From: an uncultured Lachnospiraceae bacterium
Lineage (GTDB): Bacteria; Bacillota; Clostridia; Lachnospirales; Anaerotignaceae
Reading direction: 5' to 3'
DNA: 64,000 nucleotides
NCBI GenBank assembly: GCA_944384295.1
Contig: CALWSU010000010.1
Span: 2,061 to 66,060, forward strand
Made by a program: the position numbers and the translations under genes. Under the pieces are notes generated by a model that was given only the letters and a program-made list of their open reading frames with translations, searched no databases and was not told the origin of the DNA. Positions 4,250 to 57,094 of the stretch are shown piece after piece (position 1 is the first letter of the stretch; each line of letters begins with the position of its first letter).

Positions 4250-4535
4250 TAGACTGTAGAAAAAAGTTTTATATTTTTTTCATGAACGCGGAAGGGTTTG
4301 GGGAACAAAGCGTTCCCCAAATTCCATCCGCAGTCGGAATTTATTTCCGACGAGGAAAAGCAGAAATTTCAAGGCTTTTAGCCGATGGAATGCCGCACCC
4401 CGAAAGAGACGGGGGCAGCGAAGCTGACTTTGCGAAGCAAAGTGCTTGACCAGAGCTTTATACTTCTGTCTACTCGTCAAAGGCTTGAATGAAATGAGCC
4501 TTTGACGAAAGGGTGTCGACTTTTTCGACACCCTG
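4250..4535 (+). mobile_element. MITE-like structured repeat, copy 1 (286 bp, carries module B)
   Basis: Ends tagactgtagaaaaa...tttttcgacaccctg; flanked by a 19-bp near-direct repeat tttcacttgaaaagcgttt (4231-4249) / tttcgcttgcaaagcgttt (4536-4554); homologous to four other copies. Confidence 0.85.
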
Positions 4536-4541
4536 TTTCGC

Positions 4542-4570
4542 TTGCAAAGCGTTTATTTTTTGCGTACAAT
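4542..4570 (+). promoter_or_regulatory. Putative sigma-A promoter of nfo-ogt
   Basis: TTGCAA-17 bp-TACAAT; the -35 box lies inside the right target duplication of repeat copy 1. Confidence 0.55.
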
Positions 4571-4605
4571 ACAAAGCAAGAAATGAGAGAAAGGACGAAA
4601 AAATT

Positions 4606-5442
4606 ATGTTTTGGATAGGGTGTCACCTTTCGGCGGCAAAAGGTTATTTGGCAATGGGAAAAGAAGCGGTCAATCTAGGCGCAAATACGTTTCAGTTTTT
4701 TACACGCAATCCGCGCGGCGGAAGCGTAAAACCTTTGGATTTGGACGATATGGCGGCATATCGTGATTTTGCTGCAAAACACAATATCGGTACGATTGTA
4801 GCGCATGCGCCTTATACACTCAATGCCTGTGCAGCAGATGAAAATTTGCAAAGATTTGCATTGCATGTCATGCGAGAAGATTTGGAACGGCTTTCTTTTC
4901 TGCCTGATGTGGTTTATAATTTCCACCCCGGCAGTCATGTCAAGCAAGGCGAAGCAGTAGGGATACAAAAAATCGCCGATTTATTGAACCAAGTATTGCA
5001 GCCAGATACCAAAACGCCTGTTTTGCTGGAAACCATGGCGGGAAAAGGTACAGAAATCGGACGCGAATTTGCACAGTTGCGCGCGATATTGGATAAAGTA
5101 GAGCTTTCTGACAAAATGGGCGTTTGTATGGATACCTGTCATGTATTTGATGCGGGTTATGATATTGTTTCGCATTTAGAGGAAGTCTTGCAGGAATTTG
5201 ATACTGTGATTGGTTTGGAACGGCTCAAAGCGATTCATCTCAATGACAGCAAAAATGCTTTGGGAAGTCATAAAGATAGACATGCTTGTCTGGACGCGGG
5301 AGAAATTGGCATAGAAGCATTGTCTCAAATCATCAATCATCCGAAATTGTGTCATCTACCTTTTGTATTGGAAACGCCAAATGATGCCGCGGGATATGCC
5401 AAAGAAATTGCATGGCTGAAGGAATTAAGAAAGGTTGAGTAA
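4606..5442 (+). CDS. nfo: Endonuclease IV (AP endonuclease)
   Basis: IGCHLS, FQFFTRNPRG, HAPYTLN, NFHPGSH, LLETMAG, CMDTCH, HLNDSK, DRHA, LETP metal ligands; ATG at 4606 after RBS. Confidence 0.95.
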   Translation: MFWIGCHLSAAKGYLAMGKEAVNLGANTFQFFTRNPRGGSVKPLDLDDMAAYRDFAAKHNIGTIVAHAPYTLNACAADENLQRFALHVMREDLERLSFLPDVVYNFHPGSHVKQGEAVGIQKIADLLNQVLQPDTKTPVLLETMAGKGTEIGREFAQLRAILDKVELSDKMGVCMDTCHVFDAGYDIVSHLEEVLQEFDTVIGLERLKAIHLNDSKNALGSHKDRHACLDAGEIGIEALSQIINHPKLCHLPFVLETPNDAAGYAKEIAWLKELRKVE

Positions 5443-5445
5443 GCG

Positions 5446-5928
5446 ATGGAATTGGAAAAAATATGGTTTTATCAAACAAAGATTGGAGAAATTGGAATTG
5501 GAGAAAAGCATGGCGCGATTGTGCGTGTGACATTTGGAAGAGAAATGGGCGGTTTGCCGCCGGATTTTGAAATGGTGGAAACGCCGCTTTTGAAATTAGC
5601 AGCAGTAGAGATTTTAGAATATTTAGCGGGAAAACGAAAAAAATTTGATGTACCACTTGCGCCAGAAGGTACACCGTTTCAAAAAAGCGTATGGACAGCT
5701 TTGCAAACTATACCATATGGCGAAACAGCGACCTATGGCGAAATTGCGGCGGCAGTTGGTAATCCAAAAGCAGCACGCGCAATAGGTCGCGCAAACCATG
5801 ACAATCCAATTGCAATATTGATTCCGTGTCATCGTGTGGTAGGGGCAAATGGGAAATTGACAGGCTATGCCGCAGGATTGGAAATCAAAAAAGCTTTGCT
5901 GGAAATAGAAAAAGAAAATATGCAATGA
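5446..5928 (+). CDS. ogt: Methylated-DNA--protein-cysteine methyltransferase
   Basis: IPYGETATYGEIA, RAIGRAN, active-site IPCHRVV motif. Confidence 0.95.
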   Translation: MELEKIWFYQTKIGEIGIGEKHGAIVRVTFGREMGGLPPDFEMVETPLLKLAAVEILEYLAGKRKKFDVPLAPEGTPFQKSVWTALQTIPYGETATYGEIAAAVGNPKAARAIGRANHDNPIAILIPCHRVVGANGKLTGYAAGLEIKKALLEIEKENMQ

Positions 5929-6027
5929 TAAAAAAGTACGCCTTGCATTTTGGATAGGATACCCACAATGCAGGCGTTATTTTTTGGTTTTACAATAGAT
6001 TCCATATGCAAATGCTTAAAATAATTA

Positions 6028-6256
6028 CAGACTGTAGAAAAACTAGATTTTATATTTTTTCAAGCGCGCGGAAGGGATTGGGAAACGAAGCGTTTCCCAA
6101 ATAGAATCCGCAGTCGGAATTCATTTCCGACGAGGAAAAGTCGAAGTTTCAAGGCTTTTAGCCGATGGAACTTCGAGCTTTATACTTCTGTCTACTCGTC
6201 AAAGGCTTGAATGAAATGAGCCTTTGACGATAGGGTGTCGATTTTTCGACACTCTA
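6028..6256 (+). mobile_element. MITE-like structured repeat, copy 2 (229 bp, minimal form)
   Basis: cagactgtagaaaaa...tttttcgacactcta; flanks ataatta / gtaatta (7 bp, 1 mismatch), the right one containing the stop codon of the aldo/keto reductase. Confidence 0.85.
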
Positions 6257-6260
6257 GTAA

Positions 6261-7100
6261 TTAGAATGTATCTGGGTGATGTCCGCTCCATTGTCCTTGT
6301 GGTGCTGTCATCAAACGGGAAACTTCTTCTGGTGTCAAAGAAAAATCAAAGATATCTAAATTTTCCTGCATGCGCTGTAAAGAAGAAGATTTCGGCAATG
6401 GCAGGATATGCTGTTCCAAAGCAAAACGCAGACAGATTTGTGCAGGTGTTTTTCCATATTTTTGTGCAAGCTCTAGTAAAAATGGGTCGTCTAATGCTTT
6501 TGTACGTCCCAAAGGACTCCATGCTTCTACCAAAAGCCCTTGTGATTGGCAATAGGATACGGCATAAGATTGCGTATAACCAGGGTGAAATTCCAATTGG
6601 TCTACCATAGGCGTGATATTGGCAGCAACCATCAATGGCATCAAGTGATGTGGTAAAAAGTTGCTCACGCCAATGGCGCGCAGTACTTTTTGTTCATATA
6701 ATTTTTCCATAGCATGCCATGCAGAAATTACTTTTTCCGCCCATGCGTCGCGGTCAACTTCAGGCATGGGCCAGTGCAACAGGCACAAATCCAGATAGTC
6801 GGTTTGCAAATCTTGTAAAGATGCTTCTATACTACGCATTGCATCGTCATAAGACAGTGCAGAACGCCATACTTTGGTAGTCAAAAATAAATCTTTTCGG
6901 TCAATCCCTGCGGTACGAATCGCATTGCCTACTTGTGTTTCATTGCCATACATACGCGCGGTGTCTATATGGCGATAGCCTGCCAGCAAAGCAGTGCAAA
7001 GCACGGATTCCGCAGTATCGTCTGTGACTTTGTAAGTGCCAAAACCGATTTTTGGAATTTTTACGCCGTTATATAATGTATAGTATTCTTGTTCTTGCAT
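6261..7100 (-). CDS. Aldo/keto reductase (2,5-DKG reductase-like)
   Basis: IPKIGFGT, GYRHIDTA..Y, LFLTTK, DYLDLCLLHWP, AIGVSNF, QLEFHP, AWSPLG, LPKSS motifs. Confidence 0.92.
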   Translation of the reverse strand: MQEQEYYTLYNGVKIPKIGFGTYKVTDDTAESVLCTALLAGYRHIDTARMYGNETQVGNAIRTAGIDRKDLFLTTKVWRSALSYDDAMRSIEASLQDLQTDYLDLCLLHWPMPEVDRDAWAEKVISAWHAMEKLYEQKVLRAIGVSNFLPHHLMPLMVAANITPMVDQLEFHPGYTQSYAVSYCQSQGLLVEAWSPLGRTKALDDPFLLELAQKYGKTPAQICLRFALEQHILPLPKSSSLQRMQENLDIFDFSLTPEEVSRLMTAPQGQWSGHHPDTF

Positions 7101-7121
7101 ATTATGTTGCCTCCTTCAAAA

Positions 7122-8357
7122 TCATATGTTTTCTGCCATTTGCGCGTATTTTTGATGCGCCAATGACAACAAATATTCTGTTTGGTTGTGGGCTGGTTCT
7201 TCCCATACATCTGCGAGAAGGGCGGATAAAATTTCTCCGATTGCTTTCCCAGCAGGGATACCTTCTGCCATCAATGTTTTGCCATCTATGGCGAGTGTTT
7301 TGAGTGTCAAACAATCACCGCTTGCAAGGATTTCACAAAGCAATGTTTGTGCTTTGTCCGCGCCATTTTGCGGATATAAAATATGTTGTAGTGTGAGTAA
7401 ATCTCGCGTCATATCCGCGCCAATGGTACCCGCAAGACGGCGTAGCTGAGGCTTGGTTTGTGGGGTAGGCTGATGCAGTACACGTAATAAGGTGAGAATA
7501 TATTTTGTAGTTTGGTTATCAAATTTCAGTTTTTTACAAAATTGTTTTGCTTCAGATTCTGTATAACCTTGTAAAACCAATGTCCAACGCAATGCCATAA
7601 CGGCAGGTGCAGCCGAAAGCTGTGTACAAAGCGCATCACCATAATTTGCCAGACGTTCTGCAAACAAAGTGTCGATATGTGGCAATAATCCACTTTCCAA
7701 TAACAACGGCAGACGGTCAGAAAAAGGCGAAAGCCAAAGCTTTGTCAATTCTGTGAAAATGCGTTCCGCGCTGATATGGGCAATCAAAGCGGCATTTTGC
7801 TGTAATGCGGTATAGGTCGCTGGTTCTACGCAAAAACCCAATTGCGCCGCAAAACGTACACAACGCAGCATACGCAAAGCGTCTTCTTGAAACCGTTTGG
7901 CAGGTTCTCCCACGCCGCGGATACATTTTTTGGCAATATCCGCACGTCCCCCAAAAGGGTCTTGAAATCCAATGGCGGGGTGATATGCAATGGCATTCAT
8001 GGTAAAATCACGTCGCAGCAAATCTTCTTTCAGATTGGGGGTAAACTGCACCGAAGTCGGGTGACGGTTGTCCTCATATGCGCCATCAATACGATAGGTT
8101 GTGATTTCGTAATTGGTTTGATGCAGCACAACGGTAATGGTACCATGTTGTATGCCAGTATCAAATGTATGCGCAAATAATGCTTTTGTTTGTTCTGGTA
8201 ATGCAGAAGTGGTGATGTCCCAGTCCTGCGGTGTGCGTCCTAATATACAGTCACGCACACAACCGCCTACAATATAGGCTTCATAGCCATTTTGGCATAA
8301 TGTTTGGAGCAATGTATGCACGTCTTGTGGTATCAATTTGTAATCAATGGCGTTCAT
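7122..8357 (-). CDS. cca: CCA tRNA nucleotidyltransferase
   Basis: YIVGGCVRD, DWDITT, GIQHGT, EDLLRRDFTMNA, RFQEDALRMLR, ISAERI; likely start MNAIDY at 8357. Confidence 0.92.
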   Translation of the reverse strand: MNAIDYKLIPQDVHTLLQTLCQNGYEAYIVGGCVRDCILGRTPQDWDITTSALPEQTKALFAHTFDTGIQHGTITVVLHQTNYEITTYRIDGAYEDNRHPTSVQFTPNLKEDLLRRDFTMNAIAYHPAIGFQDPFGGRADIAKKCIRGVGEPAKRFQEDALRMLRCVRFAAQLGFCVEPATYTALQQNAALIAHISAERIFTELTKLWLSPFSDRLPLLLESGLLPHIDTLFAERLANYGDALCTQLSAAPAVMALRWTLVLQGYTESEAKQFCKKLKFDNQTTKYILTLLRVLHQPTPQTKPQLRRLAGTIGADMTRDLLTLQHILYPQNGADKAQTLLCEILASGDCLTLKTLAIDGKTLMAEGIPAGKAIGEILSALLADVWEEPAHNQTEYLLSLAHQKYAQMAENI

Positions 8358-8545
8358 ATATACTTCATTCCTTTGGTATTTTTGATGGTTGTTCTTCCAA
8401 GCATACATATTATAACATAAATTTGTATCAATAAGATAGAAAGTTTTCGTATAGATGGCTGGTACAAAATCGTTTTTTGCAGAAAAAAGTATTGACAGTA
8501 TGGAAAAATCGTGATAGTATATTTTTTGCAATCTGATAGAAGTAT

Positions 8546-8618
8546 GCGCCCTTAGCTCAGTTGGTAGAGCAACTGACTCTTAATCAGTGGGTCCAGGGTT
8601 CGAGTCCCTGAGGGCGCA
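8546..8618 (+). tRNA. tRNA-Lys (anticodon CTT), CCA not encoded
   Basis: Acceptor stem gcgccct/agggcgc, D arm agctcagttggtagagc, anticodon stem actga/tcagt with loop ctCTTaa, T arm ggttcgagtcc; followed by A then TTT. Confidence 0.95.
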
Positions 8619-8784
8619 TTTTAGAAGCAGTGTTTTTCGGCAAAGTGATGTCGGGGGACGCTGTTTTTTTGTTTATATTTCTTTATTGTATACAAACAAC
8701 TTGCGTCGCCATTCTTGACACCAAATTCCACTCTATTATATGATAATAACAGAAAAGGCATACAAAGCGAAAGAAGGTGGCAGC

Positions 8785-10221
8785 ATGCAGAAAACAAAGC
8801 GGCGAATTGAACATTTTTCCTATTATGATATGGAAGGGATTGCCGAACACCTGCGCAAAATGGCGGCAAAAGGCTGGTATCTGCAAAGTATTACTCCATT
8901 GTATTGGGAATATGAAGCAGATACGCCCAAGCGTGTCAATTATTTTCTGACATTCGGTACACAAGGTATTTTTGGGTATCAGGAAGAAGATTGGACTTAT
9001 GTAACCAATTGGCAAGAGATGGAAATTTACCGTACAGAAGATACTTCTGTGGTGGTGCCGATACAAGATAGCCGCACAAAATTAAAAGCAATCCAAAAAC
9101 AGATGAAACAAAGTTTTGTGCCGATTTATACCTTGGGTATTTTTATGGCATTGTTGTTGCTGTTTTTGCCTTGTTTTGCCATACTGCGGGATTTTTTGAC
9201 ATGGCTGCCAGATGGTGTTTGGATGTTAAGTACATTGTCTGGGGTATTGTTGTTTTTATATACATTTGGACGTTTGCACCAATATCGCAAATGGTGTAAA
9301 CGCTCGAAAGAATGTATGTATCAATATGGCTTATGCGCGCCGGTTTTATTGGGACAACGCCGCAGAACAAAATTGTCATTTTTCAGCACATTAGTGGTAT
9401 TGTTATTTTATAGCATATTGTTGCTGCTGCGCATTGTACCAGATTTGCATATAGAATTTTCGTATGTTTCCATCTTTGCGGGCATATTGCTTTTGGTGTT
9501 TTGTGGCTGGCGCATTTGGGACAAGCATAAACAGCCAATACGAAGTAAGGTACCTTTTCAAAAAGCATATTTGCGTGTGTCCATTGTGGCATTGCTCGTG
9601 CCTGTGTTGTTGTCGGGTGTGATGTATGTAGGAGAAAAGGGCGAATTTCTTCCAAAACGTGCGATAGAAACCGTATCAGTCAAAGAAAGTACCGGTTTGG
9701 TTTCTGAATTTTATGTTTATGATGATACATTGCCTTTGTCTATTGAGGATTTACTGGGGGCACAGGAGGGCAAATATTCCAAGCGGTATCTCATGAAAGG
9801 CTCTATCTTGGCGACATATGCGCGATGCACACAAATGACACCGCCGAATGTGAGTGAATTGCCAAAATTAGAATATGAAATATGGCAGTTTCGAGGACAA
9901 AAACAATTTGAAAATGCTTTAGAATACATGCTTTCTGGCATAAATGTAAATGATGATGAGTTACAAGGGTATCAAACGTTGTTGCTCGACGGTATAGATA
10001 TGGCATATCAGCGGTACTATAGAGAGGAACTTTGCAACGAGTTTTTATTGGTCAAAGATAAAAAAATCGTACATCTGCTGACCAGTTGGGAAATGACACA
10101 AGAACAGTTAGATACAGTCGTATCGAAATTGTTTTTGTCAGAAACAGCAGAAACATCTGAGCCATCTGAAACAGTAGAACAAACCGAACAAACAGATACG
10201 GTATTGCACCCAACCGAATAA
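8785..10221 (+). CDS. DUF2812-like membrane protein
   Basis: N-terminal pattern EHLRKMAAKGWYL...WTYV...EIY followed by about five TM segments and a soluble C-domain; start MQKTKRR after RBS GAAGGTGG. Confidence 0.65.
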   Translation: MQKTKRRIEHFSYYDMEGIAEHLRKMAAKGWYLQSITPLYWEYEADTPKRVNYFLTFGTQGIFGYQEEDWTYVTNWQEMEIYRTEDTSVVVPIQDSRTKLKAIQKQMKQSFVPIYTLGIFMALLLLFLPCFAILRDFLTWLPDGVWMLSTLSGVLLFLYTFGRLHQYRKWCKRSKECMYQYGLCAPVLLGQRRRTKLSFFSTLVVLLFYSILLLLRIVPDLHIEFSYVSIFAGILLLVFCGWRIWDKHKQPIRSKVPFQKAYLRVSIVALLVPVLLSGVMYVGEKGEFLPKRAIETVSVKESTGLVSEFYVYDDTLPLSIEDLLGAQEGKYSKRYLMKGSILATYARCTQMTPPNVSELPKLEYEIWQFRGQKQFENALEYMLSGINVNDDELQGYQTLLLDGIDMAYQRYYREELCNEFLLVKDKKIVHLLTSWEMTQEQLDTVVSKLFLSETAETSEPSETVEQTEQTDTVLHPTE

Positions 10222-10256
10222 AATCTGAATAAAATCTATCAAAAAATCAACCATAC

Positions 10257-10297
10257 AAAAAAACCTGTTGCCGTGAGCAGTGGCAACAGGTTTTTTT
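10257..10297. terminator. Bidirectional intrinsic terminator
   Basis: aaaaacctgttgcc-gtgagcagt-ggcaacaggttttt between convergent genes. Confidence 0.8.
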
Positions 10298-10314
10298 GAT
10301 GCAGATGGAACTGT

Positions 10315-10833
10315 TTATTTGATTGGTGCAAAAGCGCGTATGCGCGGCACAAATGCGACCAGTGCGCGAATCGCTACAATCTCTACAATGCCCATAATCA
10401 AACATTGTACCACACGTGTTGCCATCAAAGGCAGGAAGGGTGAGCCATACAATACACTAATCCAAAATGTATTGAGCAAAAGAGAGCCAATCAATTCTGT
10501 TAGGAATATCACAGCAACAATACGCAACATGGTTTGCTTTTCGTGCAGAAAATAACCATACGCGAATCCTACCAAAAATGCGGTCAGTGTAAATCCGGGA
10601 AAATACTGCCCAATGGGAAACAAAATCGCGCCTAAAAAATCCGCAATTGCGGCAACAATCCCTGCTTGCCATTTGCCCAAATATAACGCAGTCAATACCA
10701 CAGGCACAAAGGCAAAGCCGATTTTCAAATTCCATGCCGCGATGGAGAGAAAGCGCGACAATATGATGTTCAGTGCAATCATCAATGCCATAAAAACAAG
10801 GTGTTGTGTAGAAATTTTACGTGTCGTTGGCAT
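10315..10833 (-). CDS. folT: Folate ECF transporter S component
   Basis: MALMIALNIILSRFLSI...LKIGF...YFPGFTLTA...LLNTFWISVLYG pattern; lies downstream of a THF riboswitch; start MPTTRK at 10833. Confidence 0.9.
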   Translation of the reverse strand: MPTTRKISTQHLVFMALMIALNIILSRFLSIAAWNLKIGFAFVPVVLTALYLGKWQAGIVAAIADFLGAILFPIGQYFPGFTLTAFLVGFAYGYFLHEKQTMLRIVAVIFLTELIGSLLLNTFWISVLYGSPFLPLMATRVVQCLIMGIVEIVAIRALVAFVPRIRAFAPIK

Positions 10834-10949
10834 AAAAAAAGAACCCCCTTTGTTATAAAACCATGTTTCAAACGATAACTGCAAATACCCTTGTCCCAAA
10901 AAACAAGGTTTGCTGTGATAACAAAGAGCGCTCACTTCTTTATTATGAA

Positions 10950-11045
10950 ACAGCGGGATGCGGGTTTTGTATCGCAAGCTATGCTTTTCGTTCCTGTGAC
11001 AACTCCCCGTTCACAAGACACTTAACGCACAAAGCCCTACTCTGT
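10950..11045 (-). ncRNA. THF (tetrahydrofolate) riboswitch
   Basis: Minus strand ACAGAGTAGG...TGCGTTAAGTG...GGGAGTTGTC...ACGAAAAG...TTGCGATA...CCCGCATCCCGCTGT matches the THF aptamer consensus, upstream of folT. Confidence 0.9.
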
Positions 11046-11184
11046 ATTTGCGTCTGTATGACTGGTATCATACAACGCCATTGTAGCACGCATACAAGGG
11101 AAAGTAAAGAGAGAAATCAGAAAAAAGAAAAACGCACAAAATCAGTATGCAAAGATTTTGTGCGTAGATTTTTTTCAATATGTT

Positions 11185-11787
11185 TTATGCTTCGATGGGG
11201 CAAAGCGCAAATGCCACAAGCAGAGATTTGCGAGAGGCAAAAGACCCCGCAAGCGTGATATTGCCCATATCCAAACCGTATGTCTGTGTCAAAGTAGAAA
11301 AAATACGGTCGGTTTCCAAAAAGCCGCCATTGCCAAAATAAAAGCAAATGATGTGGCTGTCTTTGGGCAGTTGGGAAAATTCTGCTTCTGAAAATGCGCG
11401 TATGACTTTGTTTTTGTCTTGGGATAATGTTTGTTTCAAAAAAGAAAGTTCAATATCCAAATGCAAAAACTCCTGTGAGGCATAGTATAATGCTGTCATC
11501 ATTTCTAATAAATCATGCTCGCCCGAAAAAGAAAGTGTCAGTGGAAATTGTGGCTGACAATTTTTTTGTAATGTGCAGATAAACCAAGGTGTGGTATCTG
11601 CGGCAAAAGAAATATGATAGGGGCGTTTTTGCACAATTTCAAAATCGTCTATGGCAAATACCAATGTATTGCCGCTGATTTTGGTGCTGATGGGCAATTT
11701 TCTTTTTTTGAGCTGCGCCTGTAAGGTATCAGACGCGCCATATAACCGCATCCCGTCAGAGTGAAAGCCGAGCATAACAAAAAGCAC
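11185..11787 (-). CDS. Hypothetical protein (start uncertain)
   Basis: 200-aa ORF directly downstream of ychF on the same strand; no family recognised with confidence. Confidence 0.6.
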   Translation of the reverse strand: MLFVMLGFHSDGMRLYGASDTLQAQLKKRKLPISTKISGNTLVFAIDDFEIVQKRPYHISFAADTTPWFICTLQKNCQPQFPLTLSFSGEHDLLEMMTALYYASQEFLHLDIELSFLKQTLSQDKNKVIRAFSEAEFSQLPKDSHIICFYFGNGGFLETDRIFSTLTQTYGLDMGNITLAGSFASRKSLLVAFALCPIEA

Positions 11788-11800
11788 CTCCTGTCACGGA

Positions 11801-13354: not shown

Positions 13355-13413
13355 GATGCAAGCCTCCCTTTTGGACGATACATGGATACATGCAAAATTA
13401 AAAATTTACAAAA

Positions 13414-14693: not shown

Positions 14694-14760
14694 ACCGTCA
14701 AATAAACCTCCTCTTTCGATTTGACAAAAATTATCAAACAAACCAAAAAATCAAAACTCT

Positions 14761-15053
14761 CAGACTGTAATAAAGTACATTTTTTACTTTTTTCAAGAAT
14801 GCAGAAGGGCTTGGGGAACAATTGTCAACACGTTTGCTGCGCAAACGCCAGCCATAAATGGCTGTCCGCACTTCTTTGCGGTGTGTAGTTCCCCAAATTT
14901 AATCCGCAGTCGGAATTCATTTCCGACGAGGAAAAGCCGAAGTTTCAAGGCTTTTTAGCCGATGGAACTTTGGTTTTATACTTCTGTCTACTCGTCAAAG
15001 GCTTGAATGAAATGAGCCTTTGACGACAGGGTGTCAACTTTTTTGACACCCTG
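14761..15053 (+). mobile_element. MITE-like structured repeat, copy 3 (293 bp, carries module A)
   Basis: cagactgtaataaag...ttttttgacaccctg; perfect 8-bp target duplication aaaactct (14753-14760 / 15054-15061). Confidence 0.88.
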
Positions 15054-15405
15054 AAAACTCTTCCAATTCTTCGTCTGCTTCCAAACGCAACAAAGCGTTT
15101 TCTTCAATAGTACCCAAACGCTCTCCGCTCAGATACCGAATCATAATTGCGTCTGCATCTCCTGTCACGCCATACGTCAATTCGATTCGTTTGGTGCGCA
15201 AAAGTGTTTTTGTTTCAGAACGTATTGCTGCGCAAATGACAGCGTTAATTTCCTGCTTTGTCAAAAAATCCGCCATACGCCCACGTAGTGCGACGGTTTC
15301 TTTTGCCCGTACCAGTTCGATTTCCACATCATAGATGGTAAATTCTTTTGCTTGTTCATACAACAGACAGATTTGTCCGTTTTCGGTTGGTATAGCAACC
15401 CGCAT
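15034..15405 (-). CDS. NifB/NifX family (dinitrogenase Fe-Mo cofactor-binding-like) protein
   Basis: MRVAIPTENG...AKEFTIYDVE, INAVIC, GVTGDAD...YLSG pattern; last six residues are encoded by repeat copy 3. Confidence 0.8.
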   Translation of the reverse strand: MRVAIPTENGQICLLYEQAKEFTIYDVEIELVRAKETVALRGRMADFLTKQEINAVICAAIRSETKTLLRTKRIELTYGVTGDADAIMIRYLSGERLGTIEENALLRLEADEELEEFSGCQKS

Positions 15406-15574
15406 ACACGCCACCGCCTTTCTGTTTGTATTGTATCCGTAGAAATAGGGAATTGTCAAATTTTCGTATAAAAATTTTTGCCTAATTCGTCAAAAAAGGG
15501 TACAATAATGTACGATACAAATAGAAGGATATAGCAAGGAAAAAATTTTTGTATCACAGGAAAGGAGATTTTTT

Positions 15575-16711: not shown

Positions 16712-16742
16712 ATGTCCCTAAGTTTTTTGACTTGTGGGACAT
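16712..16742. terminator. Hairpin/terminator duplicated on both sides of repeat copy 4 (second copy 16974-17005)
   Basis: atgtccctaagttttttgacttgtgggacat with self-complementary ends, between convergent genes. Confidence 0.65.
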
Positions 16743-16973
16743 CAGATTGTAGAAAAAGTATATCTTTTACTTTTTTTCAAGAACGCGGAAGGGTTTGGGA
16801 AACGAAGCGTTTCCCAAATTTAATCCGCAGTCGGAATTCATTTCCGACGAGGAAAAGCCGAAGTTTCAAGGACTTTAGACGATGGAACTTCGGCTTTATA
16901 CTTCTGTCTACTCGTCAAAGGCTTGAATGCAATGAGCCTTTGACGACAGGGTGTCGACTTTTTCGGCACCCTG
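16743..16973 (+). mobile_element. MITE-like structured repeat, copy 4 (231 bp, minimal form)
   Basis: cagattgtagaaaaa...tttttcggcaccctg; flanked by a 31/32-bp direct repeat differing by one C. Confidence 0.9.
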
Positions 16974-17012
16974 ATGTCCCCTAAGTTTTTTGACTTGTGG
17001 GACATATTCTTT

Positions 17013-38417: not shown

Positions 38418-38499
38418 ACAGAACACCGATATAAGCCAATAGAAACCAACATTGACAGCAATCCCAAAGCGTGGTATGCTGAACACACAACGATATATT

Positions 38500-38580
38500 T
38501 TTTGCTGGGGGTGCCGGATACAATCGGCTGAGAAATACCCTTTTTCACCTGATCTGGATCATACCAGCGTAGGGAAGCAT
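38500..38580 (+). ncRNA. TPP riboswitch
   Basis: GGGGTGCC...GGCTGAGA..TACCC...ACCTGATCTGGATCATACCAGCGTAGGGAA, followed by terminator gcgcagc...gctgcgc-TTTTT, upstream of thiD. Confidence 0.95.
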
Positions 38581-38683
38581 GAGAAAATGCAGAGCAGGCG
38601 CAGCAAAGGCGAAATTTTTTCGTAGCTGCGCTTTTTCTATGGAAAAAAAGAATAGTCAGGAAACAGAATAGGAGGAACGCAAT

Positions 38684-48758: not shown

Positions 48759-49087
48759 AAGAAATAGCCTCCTTTTGCAGTATAGTATTTTGCAATTTTG
48801 GAATTTTATTTTTTATTTTCGATTTTCACAAAATGCTATCTCTGCGTTTGTTTCCAATGTAGTTGGTATGTGTTTGCATATTTTACATATTCTCATTTTG
48901 TTTCCCCAATCGAATGATGTGCCAAAACAAACCAAACATTGTGACATCTCCTTATTTTATCAGTTTTTATACAAAGATACTATCCGCAGAACTGCCAAAA
49001 ATTACGCGCTTTACCAACAAAAAGACAGGATTTTTCCGTGCGGTTGGCGCAAACTGATTTTGCAAAGCAAAAAAAGGAGGGTATGCA

Positions 49088-49429: not shown

Positions 49430-49437
49430 CGAATGAT

Positions 49438-49797
49438 ATGGGACAAAAATTTCAGATTCGTGTGATTGGTGTGTTGACAGGTTTTGTCAATGGGCTGTTT
49501 GGCAGTGGCGGTGGCACATTGGTGGTACCAGCAATGGAACGCTTTTTAGGTGTGGAGGAACATGAGGCGCACGCAACAGCAATTGCTGTGATATTGCCCC
49601 TGTCGCTCATCTCTTTGGGGATTTATCTGTGGCGTACAGATAGTGGGGCGTTTTTGCGTGTTGCCTTATGGGCGTCCGCAGGCGGTGTGGTAGGCGGCTG
49701 GATTGGTGCAAAGCTATTATCCCATCTAAGCGGCATATGGCTGCATCGTATTTTTGGTATTTTTATGCTGGCAGCGGCGGTGCGTATGTTCCTATGA
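49438..49797 (+). CDS. Sulfite exporter TauE/SafE family, half protein 1
   Basis: GFVNGLFGSGGGTLVVP, AHATAI, GGWIGAKL. Confidence 0.85.
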   Translation: MGQKFQIRVIGVLTGFVNGLFGSGGGTLVVPAMERFLGVEEHEAHATAIAVILPLSLISLGIYLWRTDSGAFLRVALWASAGGVVGGWIGAKLLSHLSGIWLHRIFGIFMLAAAVRMFL

Positions 49798-50153
49798 TGT
49801 GGGGCGTTTTGATTGCCGCCGTATTTGCCGGCATCATCAGCGGTATGGGGATTGGCGGCGGTGTATTGCTGATTCCCGCGCTGTTGTTTTTGACAGACTT
49901 GAATCAACAGCAAGTACAAGGCGTCAATTTATTATATTTTTTGCCAACTGCCATCATTGCGCTGGTACAGCATGTGCGTGCAAAACGTGTGCGTATGGAA
50001 ATCGCAAAGCCTTTGCTTGCCGTAGGCTGGCTGGGGGCATTGGGTGGCGCTGCATTAGCAGTGTGGCTGGATGCGACACTGTTGCGGCGCATCTTTGGCG
50101 GTTTTCTTTTTGTGATGGGCTGGATGGAGCTTTGCAAACGCAAACCGATGTAA
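49794..50153 (+). CDS. Sulfite exporter TauE/SafE family, half protein 2
   Basis: GIISGMGIGGGVLLIPAL, QGVNLLYF, GALGGAALA; ATGA overlap with half 1. Confidence 0.85.
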   Translation: MMWGVLIAAVFAGIISGMGIGGGVLLIPALLFLTDLNQQQVQGVNLLYFLPTAIIALVQHVRAKRVRMEIAKPLLAVGWLGALGGAALAVWLDATLLRRIFGGFLFVMGWMELCKRKPM

Positions 50154-50230
50154 GAACGATATAAAACCGATACAAAACCCACATAAAACCCATATCTAAC
50201 CAATAAAAACCAGAAAGGAGCAGGCAATGT

Positions 50231-50401
50231 ATGGACTATTCTAAATTTGAACAACTCAAGAAAAAATTTGCAAAAGCCAATACAGATGAAAAAGTGTCGT
50301 TATATGTCAATACGCCGGATTTGACAAAAGACCAATACCGCGAATTGCTCGAAATGTATCCAAAAAGTGAATGGAACTTGCTGGACCAAGCATTGTGGTA
50401 A
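50231..50401 (+). CDS. Small protein (56 aa) below the ORF-track cutoff
   Basis: RBS AAGGAG; MDYSKFEQLKKKFAKANTDEKVSLYVNTPDLTKDQYRELLEMYPKSEWNLLDQALW. Confidence 0.7.
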   Translation: MDYSKFEQLKKKFAKANTDEKVSLYVNTPDLTKDQYRELLEMYPKSEWNLLDQALW

Positions 50402-50668
50402 AAAATCTGTATGAGATATGGTATCAAAATCTCTTGCGTCTGCTCAGATGCAGGAGATTTTTTTCATCCATTTGCGCAATCAACGCATATTTTCCAGATG
50501 AAAATACCGTTTTTTGGAATATTATTTTTCGCAACGGTTCATACTGCATATCGTAGGCAAGGATTGTTTTTGTTGGTTTCCATTTTCCGCCAAATCTGAT
50601 ATAATACGTTTTACATAGAAAGCAATACAGAGAGAAAAAGGAACAAAGCGAAAAAACGCAGAAAGGCG

Positions 50669-51052
50669 GTGTATCTGGTGCGTATTGCAGAAGAATTATA
50701 TGTAGCAAAAAATATAGAAAATTTAGGTACCATTGTATACAGCCTGCGTCGAGATATTCCGGTTTTTCGGCTGTATTGTTTGGTGGTGCGTACAAAGCGT
50801 GCGCGTCTGGAGATTGTATCGTCTAAATATTTATTTCAAACAAAATATACAAATTATGCAAAAACAGATGGTTGTATTGTAGGTGTTGCAATGGGGTATC
50901 AGGAAGCACTGGAACTTTTGTGCTTTATTGTCCGTCAAGCGATGGCGGAAGGTCACGATTTGCGCACTCCCATCAGTTGGTTTGATATAGAATGTGATTG
51001 TGATAAAGAAGGGAAAGAAATTGCAGAATCAAGAGAAGAAACACTTTCATAA
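50669..51052 (+). CDS. Hypothetical protein
   Basis: 127-aa ORF, GTG start after AAGGCGG; first of a co-oriented run. Confidence 0.6.
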   Translation: MYLVRIAEELYVAKNIENLGTIVYSLRRDIPVFRLYCLVVRTKRARLEIVSSKYLFQTKYTNYAKTDGCIVGVAMGYQEALELLCFIVRQAMAEGHDLRTPISWFDIECDCDKEGKEIAESREETLS

Positions 51053-51743
51053 TATCGGTGCGAAAGTTTTGGCGTTTGCGGCGGCTTTGGCATTGATGCC
51101 AGCATTGCTGTTGTCTTGTGTCGCATGGCGCGTGATGGACGATTTGCCGTATTTTGAACAGGAATATACAAAATACGCGGTGCCGGAAACCGTGCATATG
51201 GATATGACAGAATTACTACGCGTCACAGAGCATATGATGGCATATTTGGGAGGCGAGACAGATTCTTTGCAAATAGAAGCCCAAATAGATGGTGTGCAAA
51301 CCCCATTTTTTAGTGAGAAAGAAATTCGCCATATGGTAGATGTACAGGAGTTGTTCGCAAAAGGTACGATACTGCGCAATGTATGTTTTGTTTTTTTTGT
51401 ATTGGTAGCGGTTGGGCTTTTGTTTAGCCATAAAACAGAAATCCTTTTGCGCCAATTGCGTTGGGGGATTGTGGTCTTTTTTGCGCTTGCGCTTGCCTTC
51501 CTTGGCTTGATACTGACGGATTTCAATCGTTATTTTACCATATTTCATCTGATATTCTTTGATAATCAAGATTGGATTTTGGACCCGTCGGTAGACCGAT
51601 TGATCAATTTAGTGCCGTTAGGCTTTTTCTTTGATACGGTGCTTTGGATTGTAGGCGTGTTTGTTGCCTGCAATGTGGTGTTGTTTGTAGGGGCAAGCCT
51701 GCTGCTGCGCCGTTTTGGAAAGAAACAAATACAGCAATCTTAG
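51021..51743 (+). CDS. TIGR01906/DUF1461 family membrane protein (Lit-like)
   Basis: FFSEKEIRHMVDV..LF, FTIFHLIFF.N..WILDP..D.LI.L.P..FF; start codon uncertain. Confidence 0.82.
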   Translation: MQNQEKKHFHNIGAKVLAFAAALALMPALLLSCVAWRVMDDLPYFEQEYTKYAVPETVHMDMTELLRVTEHMMAYLGGETDSLQIEAQIDGVQTPFFSEKEIRHMVDVQELFAKGTILRNVCFVFFVLVAVGLLFSHKTEILLRQLRWGIVVFFALALAFLGLILTDFNRYFTIFHLIFFDNQDWILDPSVDRLINLVPLGFFFDTVLWIVGVFVACNVVLFVGASLLLRRFGKKQIQQS

Positions 51744-51779
51744 TGTAATCATAGTTCAATCATAGATGGGAGTCAAACG

Positions 51780-52841
51780 ATGGGAATTTTGCTATTATTA
51801 CTCAAGTGCATTGGTATCTTGCTTTTGGCATTGCTGGTATTTTTGCTTTTGGTAGTCCTGATTGTGCTTTGTACTCCGATACGATACGCATGCTCAGCGG
51901 AAAAAACAACCACTTACCATATGCAGGCAGAAGTACGCTGGCTGTTTTCCAGATTGTGTTTGCATGGGGAAACAGGGCAGGAATGGCAAACAGAAATATT
52001 TTTGTTTGGCAAACCATTAGACGCTTGGAAAAAGAAAAAACGAAACAAACGAAGCAGCAAGAAAAAACAAGAAACAATGTTGACGGTCAGAGAAAAGACA
52101 GTCAAAAACACAGAAAAAGATACAGAAAAAAATACAGAAAGTAAGCAAACACCAAAAGAAATACAAAAGCCGACATCAGATACATCTCATCATGCAGAAG
52201 TATCAGAGCGACCACCGATGCAAAAACGAGAAGAACCACAAGTCGTACAGCAAAAGGCAGTCGAATCGGAAACAGTCAAACAAAAACAGCCAAAACAGCC
52301 AAAACAGTCTAAGCAGTCTGCACAGCCAAAACAAGGCATACGACGCGTCAAGCTGTCTGAAATAGAGGAAGAACCGCCGCAAAAGGAAGATTTATGGGAG
52401 GAGGACGCCTCTTTTTTCACTGGGGAACCACAAGAAACGCAGGAAAAGGAAGCAGAAGGTTTTTCATGGAAAAAAACGCTGTTGCAAATTGAGGATAAAA
52501 AAGGGATTTGCAAGGCAGTGATACGCTTATTGCGTCGCTTGGCAAAAGGGATTTTGCCGCATCAATTGGCATTTCGTGGGACTTTGGGTACAGGCGACCC
52601 TGTTATGACGGGGTATTTGTTGGCGGTATTTGGTATACTCAAAGGGAAATTTGGGAAAAATTTGGTTGTGCGTGGAGATTTTTCGCGTATGTGCGCGGAA
52701 GATTTATCTATTTCAGTAAAAGGAAAAATCGTATTAGGATATTTATGCTATGCTATGGCGGCATTTGTGCTGACAAAACCAGTACGCCATTTGATACAAA
52801 TTTTATGGAAAGGAAGAAAGCAAAATGGGGAAAGCATTTAA
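51780..52841 (+). CDS. DUF2953 (YtfI-like) protein
   Basis: N-terminal TM, charged low-complexity middle, C-terminal GTGDPVMTGYL motif; upstream of ytfJ-like gene. Confidence 0.78.
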   Translation: MGILLLLLKCIGILLLALLVFLLLVVLIVLCTPIRYACSAEKTTTYHMQAEVRWLFSRLCLHGETGQEWQTEIFLFGKPLDAWKKKKRNKRSSKKKQETMLTVREKTVKNTEKDTEKNTESKQTPKEIQKPTSDTSHHAEVSERPPMQKREEPQVVQQKAVESETVKQKQPKQPKQSKQSAQPKQGIRRVKLSEIEEEPPQKEDLWEEDASFFTGEPQETQEKEAEGFSWKKTLLQIEDKKGICKAVIRLLRRLAKGILPHQLAFRGTLGTGDPVMTGYLLAVFGILKGKFGKNLVVRGDFSRMCAEDLSISVKGKIVLGYLCYAMAAFVLTKPVRHLIQILWKGRKQNGESI

Positions 52842-53223
52842 TGAGTCATTAGACGTATTATTTGGAAAGGTAGATGAATTGGTTTCTACAAAGACAGTGG
52901 TAGGAGATGCCATTGAGATGGACGGGCTGACATTGCTGCCTTTGATTGAGGTAGGCGTGGGCGTTGGTCTGGGTGGAAAAGAAGATGGCGGCTCTGCTGG
53001 TGGTATGGGCGCAAGAATCACGCCTTCTGCCGTATTAGCAATACAAAATGGCAGTGTACAGCTCATCAATATCAAAAATCAAGATGCAGTCAGCAAATTG
53101 ATTGATATGGCGCCTGGTGTAGTCAATAAACTCAATTTCGGTGCAATTTTCAGTGGACGCGAGAAAAAGGAACCGACTGAAAATACAGTCAAATTTGAAG
53201 AAGAACTGGTGGTAGAAGATTGA
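52825..53223 (+). CDS. GerW/YtfJ family sporulation protein
   Basis: TKTVVGDAI...LLPLIEVGVGVGLGG...GGMGARITPSAVL motif. Confidence 0.88.
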   Translation: MGKAFNESLDVLFGKVDELVSTKTVVGDAIEMDGLTLLPLIEVGVGVGLGGKEDGGSAGGMGARITPSAVLAIQNGSVQLINIKNQDAVSKLIDMAPGVVNKLNFGAIFSGREKKEPTENTVKFEEELVVED

Positions 53224-53245
53224 CGAAGCAAAGGGGGGAACCTCT

Positions 53246-54439
53246 ATGTCTGTTTTGTTGGAATATTATGATAAAGATGTATTAAAAAATATTGTAGGCG
53301 TATTGACATTGCGCCCAGAAAAAGTGATTTTTTTGTATGACAACGGCATGCGCGACATGACAGCATTTCGTGCATTGCGTACTTGCTTTGCGCGACATTT
53401 GCCAGATTTGGTGATAGAAACCTGTGCGGTAGAAAGTACATCTATGGATAAGATTTACCGCCGCACGTTGCAAGTACTGCAAGCACATAACGACTGTACC
53501 ATAGAATTGACGGGCGGTAGTGAATTGATGGTTATTGCTGGATTTCGTGCAGGTATGGAAAGCGGCGCAAGATTGGTGCATACCGATTTGGTGGGGCATT
53601 GTGTCAAAGACTTATTGAGCGATGCTGTGATTGCAAAAACGGCTACGCTGTCTTTAGAAGATTTTGTAGACGCGAGAGGGGCTTGTTTTGTAGGGGAGTC
53701 ACATCGCCCACCTATGCCGGAACGATATGACGCCATTTGGCAGATGGCGCGCTATTTATTCCGACATCTTTCAGAATGGAAAACGACTTGCAGCTATCTG
53801 CAAACGGTAGCTGCACGATATTTGCCCCATGAAGTCTATATGGACAGCAAAGAACAGATTTATATGAAAAGTGGGAAAAAAGTTTCCCCGAATCGAGAGA
53901 TACTCAAAGAGTTTCAACGGTTAGGCTTTATCAGAAATTTGGTGATGACACAGGATAGAGTCCATTTTTCTTTCTGTTCTGTGGAAGACCGCAGTTATTG
54001 TACAGGATATGGGGTATGGCTGGAATTATATGTATACATAGCAGCCGCGCGTTCGGGCGTATTTGATGATGTCAAGTTGGGAACGATGATTGACTGGAAT
54101 GCGTATGATGGTGTGGTGGTGGCTGGCAACGAAATAGATGTGATTTTGATGGAAAAATCCCTGCCTGTCTTTATTTCCTGCAAACTGCGCAATGCAGATA
54201 CTGCCGCGCTCAATGAATTGCTGATTGCCAAAAAAAGGGTAGGCGGTTGGTTTTCCAAAGGTGTTTTGGTCACATTCAGTCGAGAAAAGGTGGAGCATAG
54301 CGGTACCTATCAACGAGCAAAAGAATTGGGGCTGGAGATGTTAGACGCCGCAGATATATTATCCGAAGATTTTGGCGCGCGTTTGGTCAAGACCATACAA
54401 GAACATGATTTGGTCAGCTTAAAGTGGAAAAAAGTCTAA
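53246..54439 (+). CDS. DUF1887 / Card1-Can2-like CARF plus PD-(D/E)xK nuclease-fold protein
   Basis: N-terminal LLEYYDKD.LKNI...RPEKVIFL and IELTGGSELM (CARF-like); C-terminal GVWLELYV...NEIDV...FISCK...ALNEL; 397 aa. Confidence 0.75.
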   Translation: MSVLLEYYDKDVLKNIVGVLTLRPEKVIFLYDNGMRDMTAFRALRTCFARHLPDLVIETCAVESTSMDKIYRRTLQVLQAHNDCTIELTGGSELMVIAGFRAGMESGARLVHTDLVGHCVKDLLSDAVIAKTATLSLEDFVDARGACFVGESHRPPMPERYDAIWQMARYLFRHLSEWKTTCSYLQTVAARYLPHEVYMDSKEQIYMKSGKKVSPNREILKEFQRLGFIRNLVMTQDRVHFSFCSVEDRSYCTGYGVWLELYVYIAAARSGVFDDVKLGTMIDWNAYDGVVVAGNEIDVILMEKSLPVFISCKLRNADTAALNELLIAKKRVGGWFSKGVLVTFSREKVEHSGTYQRAKELGLEMLDAADILSEDFGARLVKTIQEHDLVSLKWKKV

Positions 54440-54487
54440 AAAATAATGACAATAATGACAATGCAATAATGCGGAAGGACGATAGGT

Positions 54488-55087
54488 ATGGCTAAAAAAA
54501 ACACACGCAATACCAAAAGCCGTATCATAGCGGCAGCATGGAAATTGTTTTATGAGCAAGGGTATGATGATACGACAGTAGAGGAAATCGTCGAAAAATC
54601 GGGTACATCAAAAGGCTCCTTTTATCATTATTTCAATGGCAAAGATGCTTTGCTAGGTTCTTTGTCTGAGTTGTTTGACGATAAGTATACGGAATTGATG
54701 AAAACATTGCCGCAGGATATGCACTGTTTCGACCAATTGATGTATTTGAATCAAGAAATGTTTCGTATGATTGATGACAGCATTTCTTTGGATTTATTGG
54801 CGCGCCTATATTCTTCCCAGTTGATTACAAGCGGAGAACGGCATTTGATGGACCATAATCGTGTATACTATAAATTATTGCGCCAGATTACGGCAGAAGG
54901 ACAACGCAGGGGAGAATTGCGCGAAGACATATCGGTCAATGAATTTGTCAAAACGTATGCGTTGTGTGAACGTGCGCTGATTTATGACTGGTGTTTGTGT
55001 CGAGGGGAATATTCTTTGAGTCGATATGCGGCGCAGATGATGCCATGTTTTTTGGGTGGTTTTCGCGCGGAACCTTCCGATTCCTAA
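54488..55087 (+). CDS. TetR/AcrR family transcriptional regulator
   Basis: IIAAAWKLFYEQGYDDTTVEEIVEKSGTSKGSFYHYFNGKDALL HTH. Confidence 0.93.
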   Translation: MAKKNTRNTKSRIIAAAWKLFYEQGYDDTTVEEIVEKSGTSKGSFYHYFNGKDALLGSLSELFDDKYTELMKTLPQDMHCFDQLMYLNQEMFRMIDDSISLDLLARLYSSQLITSGERHLMDHNRVYYKLLRQITAEGQRRGELREDISVNEFVKTYALCERALIYDWCLCRGEYSLSRYAAQMMPCFLGGFRAEPSDS

Positions 55088-55419
55088 AGAAAAATTTTAA
55101 ATAAAAATCAAGTGAAATGGTATGGTATATTTCTATGTACTTGTAAAAATACAATATTGACTTATTAGAAGGTTTGTCTGAAGCAGATGCAGGATTGCAT
55201 CTGCTTTCGTTAGTTTCGCACAATGGCAAAAGGCTTTTTCTGGTTTGCAATGTATGCTTACGCAAATCGGATTTGGCATTGACAGATTTTCTATTTTGTG
55301 GTTTCATGTTACGTAAGTTTTGTATGAAAATAAATACAAAACAGTACAAAAGAAAAAATGCACAAGAACAAAAAACAAAAGAGAACTACAAAAAAGAGAT
55401 ACAAAGGAGGAAATGACAT

Positions 55420-56604
55420 ATGGTGCGTTATGCGAAACGAATGGAACAACTGACAAATTCTGACATTGGTGAACTGCTAAAATTGATTGCACAGCCGGAT
55501 ATCATTTCCTTTGCGGGTGGTTTGCCAGCAGCGGAATTATTCCCTGTCGAACAACTGCGTCAAGCATGTAATCATGTGATGGACGAAGTGGGGCGTGTCG
55601 CATGCCAATATTCCGCAACAGAAGGTTTGCCGGCACTGCGCGAAAAAATCGCCCAAAGAATGAAAGAAAAAAATAATATCGAAACAGATGCAGAACATAT
55701 TCTGATTACGAGTGGTTCTCAGCAGGGATTGGATTTTTCGGGACGTGTATTTCTGGATAAAGGCGATGTAGTGCTAATGGAAAGCCCTTCTTATCTAGGC
55801 GCAATCAATGCATTCAAAGCATGTGAGCCAACCTTTCTAGAAGTGCCGACAGATGATGACGGTATGGTGATGGAAGAACTCGAAAAAATACTGCAAACCA
55901 CAGAAAATGTCAAAATGATATATGTGATTCCAGATTTCCAAAATCCGACAGGACGTACATGGTCTTTGGAACGCAGACAGAAATTTATGGAAATCATCAA
56001 TCGTTATGAAATTCCGGTCATTGAAGATAACCCATATGGGGAACTGCGTTTTGAAAATGAAGATATGCCTGCACTGAAGTCTTTGGATACAAAAGGTCTG
56101 GTTGTATTTTTGGGTACATTCTCAAAAATTCTGGTGCCTGGCTACCGTTTGGGCTGGGTATGTGCTTCGGATGAAATACTATCTATGTATAATTTCATCA
56201 AGCAAGGCGCAGACTTGCAGACACCTACAGTGACACAGCTGGAAGTCAATGCTTATATAGATTTGTTTGATTTGGACGCACATGTAGACAAAATCCGTGA
56301 ACTGTATCGTCATAGACGGGATGTCATGATGCAGGCAATGGAAGAATACTTCCCCAAAGAAGCAAAATTCACACACCCTGACGGCGGTTTGTTTACATGG
56401 GTAGAACTGCCGGATTATATCAATACACGTGATATGGCATTGCAATGTCTGCAAAAGAAAGTGGCATATGTGCCCGGCGGCAGTTTCTTCCCCAATGGTG
56501 GGCAGGAAAACTGTTTCCGTATGAATTATTCTTGTATGCCAGATGAAAAGATAGTAGAAGGTGTCAAAGCGATTGCAGAAGTCATTCGCGCGAATCTGAA
56601 ATAA
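55420..56604 (+). CDS. PLP-dependent aminotransferase class I/II (LysN-like), paralog 1
   Basis: ISFAGG.P, TSGSQQGLD, PDFQNPTG, EDNPY, GTFSKIL.PG.RLGW, GG.F.W, FRMNYS. Confidence 0.92.
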   Translation: MVRYAKRMEQLTNSDIGELLKLIAQPDIISFAGGLPAAELFPVEQLRQACNHVMDEVGRVACQYSATEGLPALREKIAQRMKEKNNIETDAEHILITSGSQQGLDFSGRVFLDKGDVVLMESPSYLGAINAFKACEPTFLEVPTDDDGMVMEELEKILQTTENVKMIYVIPDFQNPTGRTWSLERRQKFMEIINRYEIPVIEDNPYGELRFENEDMPALKSLDTKGLVVFLGTFSKILVPGYRLGWVCASDEILSMYNFIKQGADLQTPTVTQLEVNAYIDLFDLDAHVDKIRELYRHRRDVMMQAMEEYFPKEAKFTHPDGGLFTWVELPDYINTRDMALQCLQKKVAYVPGGSFFPNGGQENCFRMNYSCMPDEKIVEGVKAIAEVIRANLK

Positions 56605-56742
56605 ATCATTTGTTTGACTGATTTTTGGTAGGGACTGCCCCTCCTTGTATTGCATTTTTGCATATGAGGAGGGGTTTTTCTATTTTTTTTGACGAAAATT
56701 TATCAGAATAAAATAGTATATATTGTATTTCAAAATATACAG

Positions 56743-57094
56743 TAGATTGTAGAAAAGTACATTTTTTACTTTTTTCAAGAACGCGGAAGGGTTTGGGGAA
56801 CCAATGTCAACACGTTTGCTATGCAAACGCCAGCCATAAATGGCTGTCCGCACTTCTTTGCGGTGTGTAGTTCCCCAAATTCAATCCGCAGTCGGAATTT
56901 ATTTCCGACGAGGAAAAGCCGAAGTTTCAAGGCTTTTTAGCCGATGGAATGCCGCACCCCGAAAGAGACGGGGGCAGCGAAGCTGACTTTGCGAAGCAAA
57001 GTGCTTGACCAGAGCTTTATACTTCTGTCTATTCGTCAAAGGCTTGAATGAAATGAGCCTTTGACGACAGGGTGTCGATTTTTTCGACACCCTG
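56743..57094 (+). mobile_element. MITE-like structured repeat, copy 5 (352 bp, modules A and B)
   Basis: tagattgtagaaaag...ttttttcgacaccctg; flanks gtatatattgtatttcaaaatatacag / atgtattttgtatttaaaaatatacag (27 bp, 4 mismatches). Confidence 0.88.

Follow-up and report, generated by a model that had tools for sequence, protein, structure and literature searches.

A 64,000-nucleotide stretch of the genome of an Anaerotignum gut bacterium (Anaerotignaceae), positions 2061-66060 of contig C10 and referred to here as the window, carries five copies of one repeat between, and partly overlapping, its genes. Here we report that these repeats are copies of a small non-coding transposon, a transposable element of the miniature inverted-repeat type (MITE) with a core of ~229 bp, which holds structured cassettes at two internal plug-in sites, A and B. 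We show that each of these sites changes state independently, quickly and in place, as seen at orthologous loci and among copies with near-identical backbones. The genome that holds the window (G000) is an assembly of 2.31 Mb in 73 contigs, 91.5% complete; like the others compared here it is a draft, in which repeats are often located at contig ends.

A conserved 34-mer of the repeat has five matches in the window, all on the + strand, compared with none in 100 shuffles. Element limits were set by local alignment to the element ends together with reading of position rulers. The backbone is divided into segments S1, S2 and S3, so that the full element has the order S1-A-S2-B-S3. The copies, their cassettes and the direct repeats that flank them are as follows.

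4250..4535, + strand: MITE copy 1, 286 nt, state B, between divergently oriented genes; ends TAGACTGTAGAAAAA ... TTTTTCGACACCCTG
4231..4249 and 4536-4554, unstranded: copy 1 is flanked by an imperfect 19-bp duplication, tttcacttgaaaagcgttt / tttcgcttgcaaagcgttt, each repeat directly adjoining the element
4391..4451, + strand: cassette B of copy 1 (unit in + orientation), 61 nt, 100% identical to 56950-57010
6028..6256, + strand: MITE copy 2, 229 nt, no cassette, between convergent genes
14761..15053, + strand: MITE copy 3, 293 nt, state A
14753-14760 and 15054-15061: 8-bp flanking duplication of copy 3, aaaactct
14820..14887, + strand: cassette A of copy 3 (inverted unit plus junction bases), 68 nt, in the loop of GGGGAAC/GTTCCCC
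16743..16973, + strand: MITE copy 4, 231 nt, no cassette, between convergent genes
16712..16742 and 16974-17005, unstranded: flanking duplication of copy 4, a 31-bp terminator-like stem-loop
56743..57094, + strand: MITE copy 5, 352 nt, state A+B
56719-56742 and 57098-57121: imperfect 24-bp flanking duplication of copy 5
56802..56869, + strand: cassette A of copy 5, in the loop between GGGGAAC and GTTCCCC
56950..57010, + strand: cassette B of copy 5, identical to 4391-4451

An earlier note, made from the letters of the window, had assigned module A to copies 3 and 5 and module B to copies 1 and 5, leaving copies 2 and 4 without a module; these assignments and their coordinates were confirmed, as was the identity of the two B cassettes. 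Cassette A takes the place of the short GAAGC or AAAGC loop found in the window copies that lack it. Two copies also touch annotated reading frames: the 3' end of copy 3 (15034-15057) overlaps the last 24 nt of the open reading frame (ORF) 15034-15459 (- strand), and ORF 6261-7100 (- strand) stops within a few bases of copy 2 (6256-6261), so that the element can supply or abut gene ends.

One unit at two plug-in sites

The two modules had been described in the earlier note as different from one another. Judged from their sequences, A and B are instead one three-hairpin unit of 58-64 nt in opposite orientations, inverted at site A and direct at site B. Alignment of reverse-complemented A with B gives a score of 57, compared with 26.7 +/- 4.3 for shuffled sequences (maximum 45 in 2000; z 7.1), and the same comparison in the same orientation gives a z of -0.6. 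A profile hidden Markov model (HMM) of A matches B on the opposite strand and vice versa, and the two forms are linked by units found in other genera. The unit is closed by a stem of 4 bp and contains three hairpins, with TGA conserved as its tail. When 117 distinct units drawn from several genera were aligned jointly, canonical pairs filled 98.4% of pair cells, and at least two Watson-Crick pair types were seen at 8 of the 14 pairs predicted, from which we infer that the structure of the unit is conserved across genera by compensatory change. Two loops of the unit are C-GAA-G triloops; the oligonucleotide d(GCGAAGC) is an unusually stable DNA mini-hairpin.

The sites that accept the unit differ in structure. 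Site A is the loop of a GGGRAAC/GTTYCCC hairpin, and site B lies in the 3' strand of the GCNNNAGTT/AACTNNNGC stem, where the cassette replaces ~4 nt of one strand of a long covarying backbone stem. The cassette-free element has a predicted folding energy of -97.5 kcal/mol (z -8.2 versus shuffles), and the A+B element folds with a z of -8.6. With A present, the predicted fold retains an intact GGGGAAC/GUUCCCC stem and displays the three hairpins of the unit in a multiloop; in B-bearing copies the stem GCNNNAGUU/AACUNNNGC is lost. The proposal that both modules insert without breaking the fold is thus true of A only, since A sits in a loop and B replaces the strand of a stem.

Within Anaerotignum, neither the site nor the orientation of a cassette type varies. 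In G000 neither A nor B was found on its own: every match stands in the S1-A-S2-B-S3 order or at a contig end, and an apparent solo B (C48:8510) lies in a decayed MITE. The arrangement is more varied in other genera. In three genomes (G023, G069 and G082) a B-like unit is reversed and occupies a different backbone loop, after CCGCAG; the metagenome-assembled genome E06_bin171 (G056) carries B-like units at two further sites, including one between A and S2; and in G097, G102, G053 (as an array), G048 and G098 units occur with no recognisable backbone, as judged by eye and with HMMs trained on Anaerotignum, which may miss diverged backbones.

Other small structured blocks accompany the unit in these genomes. 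In G102:C28 (L077) and G053:C3 (L085), B-like units are neighboured by series of different small hairpins whose triloops are C-GAA-G or C-GTA-G, which suggests a wider repertoire of such hairpin modules in Anaerotignaceae. At two loci of G056 (L028 and L079), relatives of the MITE have another kind of cassette (gtaaagcacc...gaagcaaaatgccgac), which occupies two other positions in the backbone and is sometimes found twice per element.

Each site changes state independently and in place

The 45 complete copies of G000 comprise 19 with no cassette, 10 with A, 5 with B and 8 with A+B, as well as single copies with AA, BB and AA+BB. Across genomes, tandem unit numbers of 0, 1, 2 and 4 were seen at site A and of 0, 1, 2, 3 and 5 at site B, the longest arrays being four A in G009:C150 and five B in G001:C7:94625-94926, both in relatives of G000.

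Module states were mapped onto a maximum-likelihood (ML) tree of the backbones, calculated with the cassette columns removed. The tree requires at least 12 state changes for A and at least 9 for B, with module state distributed nearly at random, and several changes are needed even if only its well-supported branches are trusted. Copies with the most similar backbones are often in different module states. For instance, 2 of 219 positions distinguish the backbone of C6:21360 (A+B) from that of C32:10195 (none), and only 3 backbone differences separate C1:42769 (B) from C57:4174 (none). The cassettes are also more uniform than the elements around them, with a mean pairwise divergence of 3.4% for A and 1.4% for B, compared with 5-18% for the backbone segments of the same copies.

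The same mobility of state is seen when single loci are followed between species. A set of 75 further loci from six related genomes, with both flanks matched, was sorted into 19 ortholog groups. Module state varies in 13 of these groups (at site A in 11 and at site B in 5), in flanks that are mostly 90-99% identical. The switches are clean indels of 58-64 nt, fixed in position and accompanied by no more than one substitution next to them, and one locus holds a single unit in three species and four units in a fourth. Together with the many changes on the tree, this bears out the view of the earlier note that the modules are discrete units varying independently of each other; they vary independently of the backbone too.

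For most orthologous differences polarisation was impossible. One group (GROUP0) could be rooted by G000: G000 and G004 both have no unit, and the sisters G009 and G002 have one each, which is better explained by a single in-place gain of A than by two losses.

Movement of the whole element and its presumed parent

Element length ranges from 229 to 472 nt across copies, and none carries an ORF of its own. About 60-70 copies are present in the 2.31 Mb of G000, many of them at contig ends. When the left end (CAGACTGTMRAAAAA) is compared with the right end read as its reverse complement (CAGGGTGTCGAAAAA), 12 of 15 positions agree, so that the element has imperfect inverted ends of 15 nt. Direct repeats of 6-44 bp abut the element in 28 of the 45 complete G000 copies; most of them are whole palindromic terminator-like stem-loops, and in a typical pair the T-tail is lost in the left copy and kept in the right. 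On this pattern, the MITE inserts at DNA stem-loops, mostly rho-independent terminators, and usually duplicates the whole stem-loop on both sides.

One site is filled by the MITE in G001, G004 and G009 (L116-L118) and empty at the orthologous position in G002 and G014 (L115 and L114), which indicates that the MITE moved as a whole. The element here separates a stop codon from its terminator; no duplication of the hairpin accompanies it, and the repeat is of only ~3-4 bp. Copy 2 of the window was considered as an ortholog of a MITE located 3' of a homologous gene in G001, G004 and G009, and this was rejected on the grounds that the downstream flanks differ; the comparison was confined to the relatives. 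The element family was found in 10 of the 14 other Anaerotignum genomes searched and occurs in more diverged form in other genera of Anaerotignaceae.

The MITE presumably derives from an IS1182-like parent insertion sequence (IS) of Anaerotignum. Contig ends of G000 carry IS ends that start with CAGACTGTCAAAAAA and CAGCCTGTCAAAAAA, and the first 15 nt of these are the same as in the MITE.

C32:22678-22754, C66:1-76, C27:25814-25885 and C43:1-76 (G000, beyond the window): contig breaks that hold ends of the presumed parent IS

Two pairs of contig ends carry these IS ends, and one duplicated hairpin flanks each pair; the interior of the IS is missing from the G000 assembly, the contigs of which are all at least ~3 kb long. 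The link to IS1182 comes from an internally deleted relative of the IS in another Anaerotignum genome (G008:C105). Its ends are homologous, with its left end GAGGGTGTCGAAAAAGTCCAGC identical to the right end of the MITE, and its N- and C-terminal ORF remnants match the IS1182 transposase model NF033551 (E 4e-16 and 3e-10, as fragments below the full-length cut-off) as well as PF05598 and PF13751. Searches for an intact parent gave negative results within their scope: BLAST of both IS ends in five relatives returned the remnant only, an exact 28-mer scan of metagenome contigs gave 0 matches, and no PF13751 match was found in G000. An IS1182 element of G056, found by searching for PF13751 across the family, was rejected as the parent because its ends differ. 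A second, unrelated repeat (TTGAATTTATAATCTAAGTGCAACAAG...) at C34:19698-19815 of G000 sits ~42 nt inside one copy of an IS end; it also ends two other G000 contigs (at the end of C2 and the start of C11) and is probably another IS.

In staphylococci, the IS1182-family element IS1272 picks its stem-loop targets by structure and not by sequence, often downstream of genes (Wan et al. 2017, PMC5678879). It replaces, and so deletes, the target stem-loop without duplication, and a duplicating route, pathway b, is drawn as a possibility only (PMC5678879). The preference for stem-loop targets is shared with the elements described here, and the NF033551 matches of the transposase remnants in the relative of the presumed parent suggest an IS1182 connection. 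The outcome differs, in that IS1272 deletes its target and the present elements carry the duplicated stem-loop on both sides, as drawn in pathway b. The present object is, moreover, a 229-bp non-autonomous derivative with internal cassettes, unlike IS1272.

Explanations for module turnover and comparison with known systems

How units come and go is probably, though by no means securely, explained by a combination of recombination and slippage. Each site holds 0, 1, 2 or more tandem units. Loss of units and changes in their number would result from replication slippage or from bypass of extruded hairpin structure. Units would be regained when one of the many other copies acts as donor in a non-reciprocal transfer, by gene conversion or template switching, for which the conserved backbone stems would serve as short homology. 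With two sites flipping independently, the set of none, A, B and A+B is the product of the two and need reflect neither a deletion series nor autonomous transposition of modules. The earlier note had raised shuffling between copies, and this fits two observations. Four-gamete combinations of single-nucleotide polymorphisms make up 64% of informative pairs, compared with a mean of 46% (maximum 58%) in 200 no-recombination simulations on the ML tree. In addition, one orthologous switch (G001 compared with G004 and G009) is accompanied by five extra substitutions within ~20 nt of the site, against two in the remaining ~200 nt, a patch that looks like the product of gene conversion. The greater uniformity of the units than of the backbone in the same copies is likewise in keeping with transfer between copies.

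A number of points weigh against recombination and slippage as the explanation. The no-recombination null already yields 46% incompatible pairs; a test of distance-dependent incompatibility of the pairwise homoplasy index (PHI) type was not significant (p 0.43); and a search of G001 for a donor with the exact patch matched only the locus itself. Most switches keep locus-specific adjacent bases (GTGTCCC in GROUP12, AACTGTT after B in GROUP4), which is awkward for an ordinary conversion tract, as one coming from a paralogue would usually overwrite them. Finally, since other genera carry the unit at other sites, in the other orientation and apparently free of the backbone, some relocation mechanism must exist.

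The retained adjacent bases keep in play the reading that the unit is itself a tiny mobile module, which a structure- or site-specific activity would place, in either orientation, in certain hairpin loops or stems of the MITE and excise again; we take this reading seriously but consider it rather unlikely. The mover could conceivably be a stem-loop-seeking transposase of the IS1182 type or an unknown enzyme. A single unit in both orientations, its occurrence in other genera at no fewer than three backbone positions and, in some, seemingly with no backbone, clean in-place indels that spare the neighbouring bases, the polarised gain in GROUP0 and the far greater uniformity of units than of backbones are all in keeping with such a module. 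The earlier note had likewise proposed nested mini-elements moving independently. Against this reading, G000 holds no unit that stands alone, and within the genus each cassette type has a single site and orientation. Insertion leaves no target duplication or other conserved signature, and in G000 3-4 loop bases are replaced, not interrupted. A transposase of the RAYT/Y1 type was rejected as the mover, as PF01797 was not found in G000 (91.5% complete). The backbone-free cases, for their part, rest on inspection by eye and genus-built HMMs, so that diverged backbones were possibly overlooked. Broader still is the idea of the 60-nt unit as an undescribed micro-mobile element, addressed by DNA structure, that invades hairpins of MITEs and other intergenic sites in either orientation and spreads through Anaerotignaceae independently of MITE backbones; we regard this as doubtful.

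It is improbable, in our estimation, that the pattern arose from an A+B ancestor by repeated independent deletion of cassettes, with gains never occurring. Hairpin-rich inserts are prone to deletion, and many of the orthologous differences lack polarity. Branching independent deletions from such an ancestor can also give all four states, so that the four combinations, from which the earlier note had argued that no linear series of deletions could account for the copies, are a weak argument by themselves. What sustains that conclusion is other evidence: the AA, BB and AABB states and the arrays of 4-5 units speak of expansion, and GROUP0, rooted by G000, favours a gain (one step as opposed to two). 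Furthermore, the short alleles are uniform, properly paired loops and stems and not ragged scars, and divergence is 2-10 times lower among the cassettes than in the backbones that carry them. We place equally little weight on the view that the cassettes are functional RNA modules, such as stabilisers of 3' untranslated regions or protein-binding hairpins, whose presence is set by selection on the neighbouring gene. The element does fold far better than shuffles (z -8.2 and -8.6), its hairpins are kept by compensatory changes across genera, insertion at terminators puts it where co-transcription would occur, and BOX and ERIC elements have such effects (PMC3049150, PMC3184786). The occurrence of the unit in both orientations, however, argues for a constraint at the DNA level or one that is strand-symmetric, and copies occur alike in divergent, convergent and tandem gene contexts. 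Nor is there an Rfam match to the element, searched with the whole window at gathering score and with copy 5 at E up to 10, where chance-level matches only (E above 1) were returned.

At gathering score, the Rfam search of the window located a tetrahydrofolate (THF) riboswitch at 10949-11046 (- strand, 92 bits), a thiamine pyrophosphate (TPP) riboswitch at 38497-38592 (+ strand, 70 bits) and a transfer RNA at 8546-8618 (+ strand).

Among known systems, the closest analogue of the Anaerotignum element is found in the BOX elements of Streptococcus pneumoniae and Streptococcus suis, which have the form boxA-(boxB)n-boxC, with boxB present in 0 to n tandem copies whose number varies in place (Croucher et al. 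2011, PMC3049150). The boxB module folds largely alone, so that its absence or multiplication leaves the rest undisturbed, and in S. suis a module is shared by different backbones (PMC3049150). Both are MITE-like composites with fixed ends and an internal module that is repeated 0 to n times in tandem and varies in place. This likeness is one of the way of working and not of family membership, the Rfam search having left the element unmatched and no box models having been compared. The Anaerotignum element differs from BOX in having two plug-in sites instead of one, with one unit in opposite orientations, in its presumed IS1182-like parent, and in the duplication of whole stem-loops in place of a short fixed target.

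REP and BIME sequences of enterobacteria and pseudomonads are mosaics of small G+C-rich hairpin units, which occur singly, in both orientations and clustered, and RAYT (Y1) transposases are believed to mobilise REPs (PMC3184786). They resemble the present unit in being small hairpin units found in both orientations. They differ from it in that here the units are three-hairpin, cloverleaf-like blocks inside a MITE with inverted ends, in a genome (G000) where no RAYT was found. ERIC elements, also called IRU, are a MITE family that reportedly exists in short and long forms, with blocks of ~70 bp at specific internal sites, and may be a further parallel to the present element. They have TA target duplications, and we know of no tandem arrays of the ERIC insert.

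A modular MITE whose module number changes in place is thus already known from BOX, and what is new here is the unity of A and B and their opposite orientations at the two sites that they occupy. The Anaerotignum element provides a second well-documented modular MITE, outside the streptococci, with an internal block number that changes at fixed loci. Beyond BOX, it adds the use of two sites by one unit in opposite orientations, a presumed IS1182-like parent, a candidate natural case of the stem-loop-duplicating pathway drawn hypothetically for IS1272, and a measured rate of turnover, with 13 of 19 orthologous loci differing between species in flanks that are 90-99% identical. If the unit were self-mobile, it would represent a new class of very small structured mobile DNA. 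The elements sit on the terminators of many genes and break many contigs of G000, and therefore matter for annotation and assembly; they may also matter for 3'-end regulation in a common gut genus.

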